Assembly (NCBI GenBank): GCA_964016885.1 | Contig: OZ024741.1 | Coordinates: forward strand, 351,416,001-351,480,000 | DNA: 64,000 bases | Reading direction: 5' to 3' | Source of the DNA: Eledone cirrhosa | Taxonomy: Eukaryota | Shown: piece after piece, positions 1,781 to 57,029 of the stretch | Numbering within the stretch: the first letter of the stretch is position 1 | Layout: every line of letters starts with the position of its first letter | The notes under the pieces: generated by a model | The model's database searches: none | Told to the model about the DNA's origin: nothing | The model's input: the letters and a program-made list of their open reading frames with translations, nothing else | Translations under genes and position numbers: made by a program

Positions 1781-2915
1781 CACACACACACACACACACA
1801 CACATATAAGCACACACACAGTTATGTATACTGGCGCACATTTATTTTGAGCAGAGTGATGGCTCGGAAATTCTTAATTATGTCTCCTTTGTTCACGTCC
1901 TTCTTCATCAGTGTTACTACTCTCCAATTTACACAACTAGAATTCTCCTGTTCTGTTTCCAGTTGTCCACATCATACACAAGCATAATCAATAATGTGTG
2001 TGTGTGTGTGCGAGCGTGCGCGTGTGTATGTGTGTGTGTGCGTGCGTGTTTGTGTGTGTGAATGCGCGCGTGTGTGTGTGTATCGGGATGCGAGCATGCT
2101 CGTGTGTATGTGCGTGTGTGAGTGTGCGTGCGTACGCGCGTGTGTGTGCGTGTCTGTGTGTGCATGCATGTGGTGAGTGTGTGTGCGCGCTCGCAAAATT
2201 AATTTTGTTTAGCTAAAAAACGCGCAAATGAAAGAGAATACACATTTACACTTGTTTACTTTGTTACGAGACAACACGTTATAACTGATATATAAACAAG
2301 GGTGACATATATGAAAGAGAATTGAAACAGGACATTCACATTTAGCTCTCTAATACATGAATACTTTTATAATTGCTAAAATTTATTAAGGCTCGGTCGT
2401 CAACCTCTCTACTCAATTAAATATATTACTTTATGTGTGTTGCAATATTTCTGTTTACATTCCTTATTATTAAATTCTAACGATATATGTACGTCTCACG
2501 TGATGAAATTTTAACGAAAGACGAGACTGGTAATTTCGATCCTCAGTTCCATTCCATCTGTGGATATATATATATATATATATATATATATATATATATA
2601 TATATATATATATATATATCTGTGTGTGTGTATGTGTGTATGTATGTATATATATATATATACACACACACACACACACACACACACACACACACACACA
2701 TATATATATATATATATATACATACACACATACACACACACACATATATATATATATATATATATATATATATATATATATATATAAGTTTATCCCATGT
2801 TCAATCGGGGGCAACCACAGTAAGTAAGGTACTCAATATATAGCAGAGTATAAATATTTAATATAGAAATGACTAGAACTGTTTCATTCAGGAGAAATCA
2901 TCAGGACACCTTGAT

Positions 2916-2965
2916 CTTTCCTGATGATTTCTCCCGAATGAAACAGTTCTAGTCCTGTAGAAGCC
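2916..2965 (+). ncRNA. Type I hammerhead ribozyme
   Basis: tttc-CTGATGA-tttctcccgaat-GAAA-cag(ttctagtc)ctg-TA-gaag with a GUA cleavage triplet. An inverted partial copy lies at 2871-2905 and a same-family copy at 56394-56444. Confidence 0.75.
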
Positions 2966-3069
2966 ATTTCTCTCTCTCTCTATATATATATATATACATG
3001 TATATATATATGTGTGTGTGTGTGTGTGTGTGTGTGTGTGTGTGTGCACGCGCGCGCGTGTGTGGTACC

Positions 3070-3190
3070 GCAACTCCTGATAGAGTCGTAGCGGCGCGGT
3101 ATTGACATACAGCGTTTCTTGGACATTTTAAGCCTGGCGGAGGCCATCCCTCCCCAGGCCTGAGTAGAGCAGATTTCTTCCAGAGAAAGA
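3070..3190. repeat. Unclassified interspersed repeat (inverted copy at ~40530-40650)
   Basis: agcctggcggaggccatccctccccaggcctgagtagagcagatttcttc aligns to the reverse complement of 40538-40590. Confidence 0.65.
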
Positions 3191-3974
3191 TAGAAAGTGA
3201 GAAGGAGGAAATGAGAAAGAGATTTAGAGGAAAGAGCGAACCTTTTACTTGACTGGTGCTCTTTTATCGTACTCGATATACATGTATAAATAATACATGC
3301 ATATATTTATTTTTTAATATCCAATTGAGTTCTTCACGCATGGTTAAAATTCTTGACAGAGTTAATTGACCTGCGTGCATATTATTTTATCCTTTTATGT
3401 TTTGCGATGACCTCCCCTTCCCGCTTGGTGACGGTGTGAGATTTCTCTTTGTGAGACTGCTGAAATTTCAAATTTGGCGGTCACTCTAACACTGACGGGT
3501 ACCATCGCTGAATGTTAATATCGGTAGGGTTTTTTTTATATCGATATTGTTGGGCATCCACTGATGATTTATAAGTGCCCACCTGCATATATTCCTATAG
3601 ACTATGTGTAGGCTTCTACATAACATGGACATTATTTTCCCAACTTGTAGAAAACTTATAATGAAACGATCGTTTGGAAAGAGGGATGTATTTAATTATG
3701 TCTCATATAAAATAATACAACTGGCTATCCGCAAAATACGTATAGTTAGCACCCCAAACGTATAATTGGGATTATACTAAGGTATATCCTAATGTTTGTT
3801 GAGTGAGACGGAAGTCGGTCGGAGTATTGCTTAAAACTTTCTCAGTTAATGTATTAAATATATGTATATATATATATATATATATATATATATATAAACA
3901 AAGTTAGAATTTGATTTTTCGCTCTAACAGCGGATTACATAAATTATTAGTTTTATATGGAATAATAATTGTTA

Positions 3975-4160
3975 TTTGGCTACTTTTGGCACAAGGCCAG
4001 CAATTATCCCAGTGCATTTATGGTACTTTATTTTATCGACCCGTAAGGATGAAAGGCAAAGTTAACCTCGGCGGGATTCGAACTCAGACTGTAAAGGGGC
4101 GTAATTCTATGCTGCAAAGCATGGCGTCCGACCCCCTACCAATACTGCCAATCTACCATC
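3975..4160 (-). mobile_element. tRNA-derived SINE (main family)
   Basis: Reverse complement has an A-box (tggcagtattggta), a B-box (gagttcgaatccc) and the core gcctttcatccttacgggtcgataaaataaagtacc, which resembles the Nin/Deu domain. Confidence 0.9.
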
Positions 4161-4772
4161 ATGCTATTACATAGCATAATGAGGCTGTTTGCAAGCAAAC
4201 AACCTCATTATGGTATGTTTTGTCTTTGATGATCATCGTCATCCGTTTGTTCAGCAGTAGCATCGAAGAACAGTCAACATTTTTCTGGGTTATTGCTCTT
4301 CATCAGGACTGTATAGTACTCTGCTACCCGTTTGAACTGTATATATATATATATATATATATATATATATATATATATATATATATATAAAGGTTTACAT
4401 ATATATATATATAAAGTCATAGATATATATGTGTTTTGCAACGGGTCACGCTGTGTCTCAATGAAGAATTAATAAATTAAATAATCAGAGCTATATATCA
4501 TAAAACATGTCTATAGAATCACCAGATAAAATATATACCGTTTCCTCTCCCAATTAGCATAATTAACCATATACAAAATCAATTAGACCAAGCTATAAGA
4601 ATAAAGGCTCCTATGAAGAAATCTCCGACAAATAACCGAAAGCAGCCCCTTCGCGGCGGTTACAACGGAGTATTTATCGAATATTTCGACAGCATGTATA
4701 AATCGACCAAATATACAGTCAACTAAACAGAATTAGGTGTAAAATAAACTAGAAGAAATGTGTACATATTTA

Positions 4773-54091: not shown

Positions 54092-54974
54092 AAAAAATCA
54101 ATCTGTGAACGCAGAAGTAAATATTTCGCAAAACGTTACACACACACTATATATATATATATATATATATATATATACACACACATATAGCGTCATAATG
54201 TCGTAATGCAGACAGCCAGGCATACGGACAGATATTATAAGGGCGCAACGTTATATCTATGTATCTATCTAAAAAGAAAGACTAAGAATTATTGAGAGAG
54301 ATCGCTAAATCGCTTAATGCGCTCCCTAGGGCATAAAAAATATTCTTTGCTCAAAACACTTACATGACCATAAGTATTACATGTATAAAGTTTGAAAACA
54401 ATCGGTTGAGTGGTTCTAATACTAAAGGGTTAAGGTATTGTTCTCAAAATAAATAATATTAAATCTATGAGATTTTTATATTATGTGAGATAAAGTCTTT
54501 ACCTTGAAAATAATATAGTATATATAGAGTAATGTAAATGCTAAAGGGTTAATTCCATCAGACCATGTGAGAGAGTTCATAATCACTCACGCACACATAC
54601 ACACTCACGCATGCAAACGCACACAAACTCACACACACACGCGCGCACGTACACACACACGCAATAGTTATTCCACTGTCATGTATCTTTGACGCATACA
54701 ACTCTCAAAAGACGGCGTCTGTAACTCTCTCTCTCTCCCGCTATCTCCCTCTTTTAGTCTGTCTGTTTCTTTCACTCTCACTCTTTCTCTCTGTAACTCG
54801 TTCACATTTCTCCCCTCTATCGAAAAACGGTGTGACAAATGGGGAGAAGGAGGAGGAGGAGTAGAGAGCCACTTCTTCACTTCGCCTCTCCGTTTCTTTA
54901 TCTCCCCTCTCACTCCCTCATTATGTACAGACATTGGCTACTTCACTAATTCGATCCCTAGTTCAGAATAATTT

Positions 54975-55105
54975 GAATTTTTTTTTTTTTGCTCAAAACG
55001 CTTCCTGGGCCATTCGGGTTACATGTGTAAAGTTTGAAAAAAAACGGTTGGGTACTTCTCGAGATTTAGGGAAGCAGACACACAGACAGACATCCTCTGT
55101 TTTAT
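54975..55105. mobile_element. Probable non-autonomous Helitron-like terminal fragment
   Basis: aagtttgaaaaaaaacggttgggtacttctcgagat..cagacacacagacagacat..ttttatata. A related piece lies at 54345-54418. Confidence 0.4.
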
Positions 55106-55689
55106 ATATATATATATATATATATATATATATATATATATATATATATATATATATATATACATGCACATCAGTACACTCATGCATGCGCAAACACAGG
55201 CCCATGCTTTAGGAGGTAGTGGAATTGTCTGTGCCCATGCTCCTACATAGGCCCATGCATGTCCAAATTAGGAGGAGGTAGGATTGTCTGCACACACGCA
55301 CCTGCATGTATCATAACCGTGTAGCACACATGTACGTACTACATTCAGGGAAGAAGAGGTTTAAGGTTATTTACACATATACACATGGGAAGTAAAATAT
55401 GTAAACTTACATGTGAGTAGTGGCAGGTTGGTGGTACAAGGTTGGTGATAAGTGGATATATTAGGTGTGGGCGAGCGAGTAGCGTGTGGGCCTGGGGTCT
55501 CTACAAGTGGGTTCTTGGGGGAGGGGGTGTGAGTGCTTGGGCAGAAGTGTAGAGTGGGGGCATGGTCCAGGTACATGTCTCTGCGCAGACATAGAGGCCG
55601 AGTGGTTTGTGTACTTGCGCTGTGTAGATATGGGTCACTAGCCTCCTGGGTCGTTTGCTAGTGTGAGGCATAGGTATGATTTTTGTATG

Positions 55690-55870
55690 CGGCGACTACA
55701 TTTGGTGACTAGTTCAGATTTTTTATTTATTAGTAAGTCCTTGTAGAGCAGTATGCAAAAGGCTTCGTCCAAGCACAAGTTACAAGGGCTTCCTCCTCCT
55801 GAGTACCGTCATACCTATGTATGCTTTTCTTTGCGTGCTGGTGGTGACCTCCCGTCTATATACTATATAC
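55690..55870 (-). mobile_element. Internally deleted PLE GIY-YIG fragment
   Basis: IVYRREVTTSTQRKAYIGMT joined out of frame to YSGGGSPCNLCLDEAFCILLYKDLLINKKSELVTKC. Confidence 0.75.
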
Positions 55871-56393
55871 TGTATATATATATACGTATATGCATACATA
55901 CATACAGATATATATATATATATATATATATATATATATACACACACACACACACACACACACACACACACACACACATATATATATATATATAGTAATA
56001 ATAATAAATTTGAAGACTAAAATCCAAAGAGGGCTCGATAAGGATAACTATATATCAAATATATAAGAACCCTAGAGCAAATATTTATTAAAATAACAGA
56101 TTAAAGTTTAAGCAAAGAATCGCTGCTTTCACCCGATTCTTTGCTTAAATTTTAATCTGTTATTTTATTAAATATATGTATGTATCTAATACCAACACTT
56201 TTTTAACTTATATATATATATATCAGTCTGTATATATATATATATATATATATATATATATATATATATTGATAAATATGGTGGGTCCGTCAACTCCTTA
56301 TTATATATATATATATATATATATATATATATATATATATATATATATATATATATATATATATATATATATATATATATTTAATATAGAAAA

Positions 56394-56444
56394 GACTTCT
56401 ACAGGACTAGAACTGTTTCATTCGGGAGAAATCATCAGGAAGCC
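56394..56444 (-). ncRNA. Type I hammerhead ribozyme
   Basis: Reverse complement: ggcttc-CTGATGA-tttctcccgaat-GAAA-cag..ctg-TA-gaagtc, embedded in (TA)n. Confidence 0.8.
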
Positions 56445-57029
56445 CTATATATATAGCTGTCGAAACGGCCGGAGCTCAGCCGTCAAGGTCCTGACTCTTT
56501 TCCTATTACCCACTCTACTACCCTAAGTATTGAGTACTCTGGTGCGTAAGGTCCACCTGGTATCTTACCACACCCTCTTTATATATATATACACACACAG
56601 AGGGGGAGGAGGGTGAGAGGGAATTAGGTAGATAGATAGATAGACAGATAAATAAATATCAGTCATGTTTATTCACTGTCCTGACTTCATCGAAAGATCT
56701 TTATTAACCATAGAATAATAAAGTATGTAATTTTTTGTGTCAAGATAGTAGGACGCTAATCACCCGTGAATTACTTTCCTTCATTCATTAGTTTTAGGTA
56801 AAAGATGAAAAATTTGATTTAGACAGAAAAAAACTATAAAGTATAGACATAAACAGATTTGATACATACATACAAGCATGCATACATACATATCTACATA
56901 AATACATACATACATTCTTGCGATTCAAGGAATGATAATTTCTTTTCTTTTACAAGCTTGCCAAAAGAAAGGTTGCCGGTCAAAAATGTACTCGAAGAGA
57001 AAGAGAAACATACATACATACATGATGAT

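Follow-up and report, generated by a model that had tools for sequence, protein, structure and literature searches.

Penelope-like elements (PLEs) of the Hydra clade are described as having one open reading frame (ORF) of about 700-740 amino acids with a DKT motif, a CxCx5C linker and endonuclease CxxC and CxH motifs, a hammerhead ribozyme near the 3' end, a (TA)n target and an inverted, 5'-truncated copy at the insertion (PMC8557442). Hydra-1_Obim of Octopus bimaculoides is such an element, with a canonical hammerhead and a preference for (TA)n (Craig et al. 2021 supplement, PMC8557442). Animal retrozymes, in turn, have been treated as PLE derivatives (Cervera & de la Pena 2020, PMC7229834; Li, Clavereau & Pollet 2026). 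What the hammerhead does in PLEs, and which enzyme mobilizes animal retrozymes, are questions that this literature leaves open (PMC8557442, PMC7229834, PMC11167929). Here we analyse 64 kb of the Eledone cirrhosa genome (the window; G000:C2:351416001-351480000, within a 3.0-Gb assembly), in which type I hammerhead motifs recur. These motifs are very probably the hammerhead ends of (TA)n-inserting families of two kinds, coding Hydra-clade PLEs that share all the traits listed above and protein-free units likely copied in trans. Since Hydra-1_Obim was already on record, a preliminary description of the window overstated its novelty. The kind of system is published, octopus included; its scale, family diversity and shared insertion footprint may be unpublished.

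The window was searched with a type I descriptor that specifies the core boxes and stems I-III, leaves the 10.1-11.1 pair free and permits a palindromic helix III. An intact-core motif has a score of at least 20 and a loop II of up to 130 nucleotides (nt), and block-wise dinucleotide shuffles serve as the control. Ten intact-core motifs occur in the window, whereas 60 shuffles average 0.12 and never exceed 1. With loop II held to 70 nt the count is 7, against 0.09 (100 shuffles), the motifs at 53193, 53806 and 3557 being seen only with longer loops. The plus strand carries 2917-2963, 3557-3678, 28420-28483, 29662-29743, 43124-43189 and 53806-53925, and the minus strand 4776-4853, 22361-22441, 53193-53311 and 56392-56446. 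Their boxes follow the type I order CUGANGA, GAAA, UH with stems I-III, from which self-cleavage is predicted. Four additional motifs have one core change (16890 and 28860, plus; 28691 and 54041, minus), and about six to eight truncated remnants are recognized by homology to intact relatives (24026 and 24645, plus; 2903, 51722, about 50580 and, weakly, 46404, minus; also 5040-5125 and 56081-56188). Six of the ten intact motifs have an AATAAA or ATTAAA no more than 40 nt from the site, which overlaps the 3' strand of stem I in the Hydra families. A tract of (TA)5 or longer follows within 250 nt in nine, the exception being the 4848 motif, at 369 nt.

The preliminary description had listed nine intact hammerheads, and all are present to within 3 bases, joined now by the tenth at 3557-3678. 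Its figure of about 20 motifs is a fair one, and the hit rate does exceed that of shuffled sequence. Families are indeed many, as it proposed, but their stems are not all unrelated: those of 28428, 28868 and 43133 (families are named by position) mark sister families.

Covariation, which the same description had suggested as a check, is found in the stems while the core is kept. Across 24 Hydra-type hammerheads, a related set made up of five descriptor hits, three window motifs and others picked for near-agreement with the core, 96% of the cells are paired, 11 of 15 stem pairs show double-sided changes and the core is nearly invariant. None of 500 shuffles scores as high, and slid controls give 40-59%.

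Three window families (28428, 43133 and 53307/53810) are the 3' ends, or pseudo-long terminal repeats (pLTRs), of coding Hydra-clade PLEs. A 5'-truncated PLE at 26163-28619 on the plus strand retains the end of the reverse transcriptase (RT), the CxCx5C linker and a GIY-YIG-type endonuclease, and ends at (TA)14. Its open frame (26317-27285) is followed by a 3' untranslated region (UTR) of about 1.1 kb and then the pLTR, where the hammerhead at 28420-28483 (plus) has a palindromic helix III and a predicted cut after 28475. An initial count with the PLE protein gave 84,796 candidates; in 20 of 30 loci fetched with the window ORF, the window locus included, a hammerhead lies 0.7-1.4 kb downstream on the same strand. 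Longer copies (L190-L196) have a single ORF of about 700-740 amino acids with DKT, CxCx5C, CxxC and CxH. In L195 and L196 a hammerhead also lies about 235 nt before the ORF, as expected of a 5' pLTR. The N-terminal RWK position reads RWC or RWR in L190 and L195-L197. DKT in place of DKG, the linker and the endonuclease CxxC and CxH are hallmarks of the Hydra clade (PMC8557442), and the assignment, to be read as a probable one, follows from this motif match and a by-eye comparison, in which the proteins look homologous. A Pfam search assigned the window PLE frame to no family and the full ORFs to none related to PLEs. Two of the few named homologues of the window protein come from Argonauta hians.

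In the second coding family (43124-43189, plus), PLE coding sequence with a Hydra-type endonuclease precedes the hammerhead in 4 of 30 copies, and the CxCx5C linker is present in L095. The window copy, about 42831-43327, consists of 3' UTR and pLTR alone, and its stem II is weakened. The third family (53193-53311, minus) has a loop II of about 92 nt. Fifteen of its 26 relatives are descriptor-positive, and PLE coding sequence with a Hydra-type endonuclease stands upstream in 14 of 27 copies. An inverted partner, 96% identical, lies head-to-head with it at 53806-53925 (plus). A sister Hydra-type pLTR forms another head-to-head pair at 28648-29066, with motifs at 28691-28756 (minus) and 28860-28925 (plus). 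GAAA has become AAAA in both. Of the pair's two ends, which both sit at (TA)n, one is short and the other long.

The 4848, 22436 and 29669 families are, judging by their sequences, protein-free, circularly permuted units of a retrozyme-like kind. In the 22436, 29669 and 4848 families the sequence upstream of the hammerhead is the same as that downstream, closing units of 468, 540 and 661 nt. The longest stop-free stretches span 69, 115 and 126 amino acids, tblastn of the units against 63 PLE proteins gives no match, and GC content is 34% for the 468-nt unit and 40% for the 540-nt unit. A coding partner upstream is found in 0 of 28 copies for 4848, 0 of 22 for 29669 and 0 of 41 for the compact 2921 family. 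For 22436, coding sequence appears in 2 of 28, both times outside the mapped 5' end of the element. An apparent coding link of a 2921-type motif in L319 was rejected as spurious, other insertions intervening.

The window copies of these units are each shorter than one unit. A young 468-nt unit at 22275-22837 (minus) has its hammerhead at 22361-22441, an inverted short arm at 22730-22837 and (TA)n on both sides; the best copies of its family are 96-99% identical to it. The 540-nt unit is represented by a 5'-truncated copy at 29513-29914 (plus) whose hammerhead, 29662-29743, has a full helix III, and the unit of about 661 nt by a 5'-truncated copy at 4390-4924 (minus) with its hammerhead at 4776-4853. 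Elsewhere, head-to-tail multimers of about three units (L016) and two units (L253) occur, 8 of 28 loci of the 468-nt family span two cut sites, and unit-spaced runs are found at G000:C1:90.02 and 92.99 Mb. By sequence, the units qualify as non-LTR retrozymes, though the majority of copies occur dispersed. The modules that had been called non-coding are thus of that nature in these three families, whereas in three others they are the ends of coding elements. The proposal that PLE pLTRs or retrozyme-like elements target (TA)n holds for both kinds, in a population that is genome-wide, and linking families to PLE ORFs succeeds in the three families for which counts are given above. A fourth unit, of about 422 nt, forms a tandem array of 23 units within one 10-kb stretch (L344) and also has dispersed copies.

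Coding and non-coding families share an insertion footprint. The target is (TA)n throughout. Past the cut site, each family favours two 3' ends that are separated by 70-160 nt, and the four such ends inspected sit at UA-rich spots. Among 99 head-to-head insertions from 7 families, divided by cut-offs chosen after the end positions were known, 87 join a long to a short end, 5 are long+long and 7 are short+short. The long+short pairs in the non-coding families number 10 of 10, 12 of 12 and 15 of 18. A one-sided tail is a known PLE trait (PMC3846280). It has been traced to two internal start sites, in agreement with the genomic tail of the element, from which a purified anole PLE was shown to extend both strands (PMC11167929). 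The long and short ends seen here fit two such internal start sites. This shared signature is the main evidence that PLE enzymes move the non-coding units. The 5' ends are scattered. In the 468-nt family, with loci picked by best match and hence in favour of long copies, 8 of 28 loci pass the previous cut site and 1 of 28 begins within 5 nt of it, so that its 28 long arms show no heap of 5' ends at the cut site. Hence linear RNA that owes its 5' end to the ribozyme does not ordinarily serve as the template.

A copying route can be proposed from this footprint. The endonuclease would cut both strands of a (TA)n tract, and the RT would prime at each cut end from one of two fixed RNA sites. Depending on family, these would lie some 50-440 nt beyond the hammerhead core, with 70-160 nt between them. 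The RT would then copy back through the hammerhead, usually stopping early, and leave solo modules that are 5'-truncated and often paired head-to-head, a long end with a short one. Its template would read through the cut site and so would be either a re-ligated circle or an uncut multimer, two possibilities that we rate nearly even. The short palindromic helix III of most hammerheads would let them cut mainly as dimers, converting a tandem transcript to unit-length RNA. Most solo copies would probably be inactive by-products, with selection acting on a few source copies. The fullest version of this route, in which protein-free RNA circles of 420-660 nt from several families are copied by Hydra-clade PLE enzymes from two fixed sites, one per cut strand, is put forward tentatively, as a proposal whose chances we place a little below even. 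If true, it would reveal which enzyme serves as the long-proposed mobilizer of animal retrozymes, and the one-sided PLE tail could be understood as the outcome of asymmetric priming by a single enzyme complex. The families are young (97-99% identical) and high in copy number, coding and non-coding alike, and their start sites are mapped, which makes both questions left open in the literature directly testable.

A number of observations weigh against this interpretation. Minimum-energy monomer folds of 12 window motifs mostly lack the three-way junction, and six of the 12 fold no better than shuffled sequence (z above -1). The usual G10.1-C11.1 pair, a common though not obligatory feature of type I hammerheads, is present in 16 of 108 motifs of a genome sample described below (U.U in 39, A-U in 28). 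A family with a U4 to A core change is highly abundant. In published assays, hammerhead mutants of the anole PLE had no effect on insertion in vitro (PMC11167929), and cleavage was seen in 1 of 9 Xenopus dimers (Li 2026, 10.64898/2026.07.22.740005). PLE coding sequence adjoins about six of the 108 sample motifs (seven were flagged, one spuriously), which leaves the majority of families unlinked to a gene, and Neptune-like and Naiad elements are candidate movers of the non-coding units besides the Hydra type. The relatedness of the covariation rows, the late choice of the long/short cut-offs and the 12 of 99 pairs that are long+long or short+short belong here also.

Several of these points would suit elements of the same kind whose hammerhead has no part in copying, the template being an uncut read-through multimer and the ribozyme a passenger or active in some other step, such as RNA turnover or translation. 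Copies do run past the cut site at both ends, with just 1 of 28 long arms starting within 5 nt of it; the family with the fixed U4 to A core is among the most abundant; insertion in vitro is unaffected by hammerhead mutants (PMC11167929); and the function of the hammerhead in PLEs is described as unclear (PMC8557442). We regard this as a real possibility, though a less than even one. Against it, the core is kept with compensatory stem changes over diverged families, which needs selection on the fold. Retrozymes of coral, mussel and axolotl form circles (PMC7229834), and in the 540-nt family 2 of 12 short arms begin within 6 nt of the cut site, a weak sign in the same direction.

It is improbable that the non-coding units are moved by an enzyme other than that of a PLE, such as a Tx1/L1-type or other long interspersed element (LINE), or are spread by tandem amplification or recombination of microsatellites. 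Tx1/L1-type LINEs are abundant in the window, the 4848, 22436, 29669 and 2921 families have no coding partner, and long arrays such as the 23 units of L344 occur; yet the two fixed 3' ends and the long and short inverted arms match those of the coding Hydra families, and the non-coding ends match the PLE-specific tail (PMC3846280, PMC8557442, PMC11167929). Chance matching in AT-rich, repeat-rich DNA would account for several lone CUGANGA sites that lack another explanation, and the 5064 core probably lies within a longer stem of a truncated element. As an explanation for the motifs as a whole it has a vanishingly small probability, and is already refuted by the shuffle controls (10 motifs against 0.12) and the covariation, along with the fixed position of the motifs relative to genes and (TA)n.

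The genome was sampled in 99 evenly spaced 10-kb stretches, 990 kb in total. With loop II up to 70 nt, 108 motifs score at least 22 and 109 score at least 20, against 0.8 in shuffles. Nine more have long loops (0 in one shuffle), for a total of 117. Extrapolation gives 3.5x10^5 motifs in the genome (bootstrap 2.5-4.8x10^5), or 3.1x10^5 (2.4-4.0) with the L344 array removed, a density of 6.7-7.6 per 64 kb, about one per 9 kb. The window is therefore ordinary in this respect. The density of hammerheads in Schistosoma mansoni may be similar. The 108 motifs fall into 31-37 clusters, taken as families. Helix III is short and palindromic in 86 of them, (TA)5 or longer lies within 250 nt downstream in 97 (background 21%), and AATAAA or ATTAAA within 40 nt in 50 (background 5%). 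Allowing a U3-A8 core adds 7 motifs (1 in shuffle). Of 215 Rfam matches to the window, the 150 given include no hammerhead, and on the genome RF00163 yielded 18 matches from 74 scored candidates, the 10 retrieved being a family not seen in the window. Natural variants with long loop II, non-GC 10.1-11.1 pairs, U3-A8 or a fixed U4 to A change are many and largely missed by the Rfam model. The estimated 3x10^5 or so intact hammerheads in 3.0 Gb exceed any published count found in our literature searches, including the 126,247 of the 28-Gb axolotl genome (PMC7229834). We found no genome-wide survey of cephalopod hammerheads in the literature, though Repbase, the Zenodo O. vulgaris library or bioRxiv supplements may already hold some families; Penelope families figure in a repeat library of Octopus vulgaris from 2026, with no mention of hammerheads in the parts covered.

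Compared with the published Hydra clade, the elements here are set apart by 3' UTRs of 0.6-1.4 kb and very high copy number (PMC8557442). Their hammerhead stems differ from those of Hydra-1_Obim, which makes them separate families, and their tails are 70-160 nt long, against 30-40 nt described for other PLEs. The non-coding units resemble metazoan non-LTR retrozymes in having one type I hammerhead in a non-coding unit, a GC content of 34-40%, multimers and arrays, and, in common with the axolotl Amex2 retrozyme, U.U at the base of helix II (PMC7229834); a PLE origin and PLE mobilization were proposed for those as they are here. They depart from published retrozymes in their insertions of 1-1.5 units, mostly dispersed in (TA)n, in the inverted-arm and tail signature of PLEs and in their unit size of 420-660 nt. 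PLE hammerheads surveyed earlier (Cervera & de la Pena 2014, PMC4209133) likewise form many variable families, mostly solo copies from truncated PLEs, with opposite-strand pairs 100-700 bp apart, a palindromic helix III and a U3-A8 variant. Those here differ in that they have a helix III, seldom carry G10.1-C11.1 and, in several families, have a loop II as long as 90-115 nt. The Anolis Poseidon element (Frangieh et al. 2024, PMC11167929) also has two internal start sites past the hammerhead, extension of both strands and an AT-rich target. It belongs to the Poseidon clade, and its sites are adjacent and lack homology to the target, whereas the ends here fall at UA-rich spots, with a different site used by each of the opposite arms.

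The remaining window motifs are more varied. The compact hammerhead at 2917-2963 (plus), with a stem I of 4 bp only, is the plus arm of a palindrome (2871-2954) and belongs to a short, very abundant family with 31 matches in the sample. A second copy, 56392-56446 (minus), sits between (TA)n tracts; a search with 56380-56700 as query returned a neighbouring family and not this hammerhead. The motif at 3557-3678 (plus) has a 95-nt loop II, a minimum free energy z of -4.2 and a possible extra helix between loop II and a strand upstream of stem I. At 16890-16947 (plus), G5 is replaced by C, and a relative in L040 is intact. A hammerhead fold at 54041-54091 (minus) has the core CAGAAGA (U4 to A), as do 13 of 18 aligned relatives (3 unreadable), in a family with 31 matches in the sample. 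With its fold intact, this family, which includes 56081-56188, is either a natural core variant or a dead ribozyme that still spreads. Another short, abundant family (50465-50585, minus, and 56460-56600; 24 matches in the sample) is nearly always truncated 5' of GAAA; judging from two or three long copies, its core may be of the U3-A8 type. The family at 1168-1200 (plus) has CUGANGA, a covarying 6-bp stem II and GAAA, with no stem I or III that could be placed, and matches the HHR_core definition (PMC8557442). Five CUGANGA sites near (TA)n have no full motif assigned (1168 and 25329, plus; 2546, 4306 and 30474, minus). The Type-SGC, or scrambled, order (site, GAAA, CUGANGA; Eckert 2023) does not occur in the window; a hammerhead-like family of this order has four copies in the 990-kb sample (L310:108-790, minus; L306; L297).

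A box of 17 nt, placed 146-156 nt upstream of the core (29524-29540, plus, in the 29669 family; also the 4848 family), recurs in at least three families with unrelated stems. The box together with the core has 2,440 exact genome matches, against 0 for the reversed pattern, and CCAAT- and E-box-like words follow the box in many copies. Possibly the box is an internal promoter. A resemblance to small nuclear RNA (snRNA) promoters was considered and rejected, as the box does not occur within 330 nt upstream of five U2 loci. U2 snRNA genes form a tandem array with a spacing of about 2.2 kb at G000:C3:307.35-307.45 Mb.

Apart from these elements, the window contains plentiful microsatellites, Tx1/L1-type LINEs and one mariner remnant; a tRNA search of the window found none. 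Three long Tx1/L1-type copies (5318-8992, 13113-16509 and 34938-38830) have open RT frames of 560-953 amino acids, and two of the three are 94% identical. A repeat of about 180 nt, resembling a short interspersed element, is very common (3958-4156 and about 15 further window sites). Palindromic insertions with no detected hammerhead, at 21373-21675, 25784-26061, 9114-9194 and 5127-5231, are possibly head-to-head remnants of PLE type.

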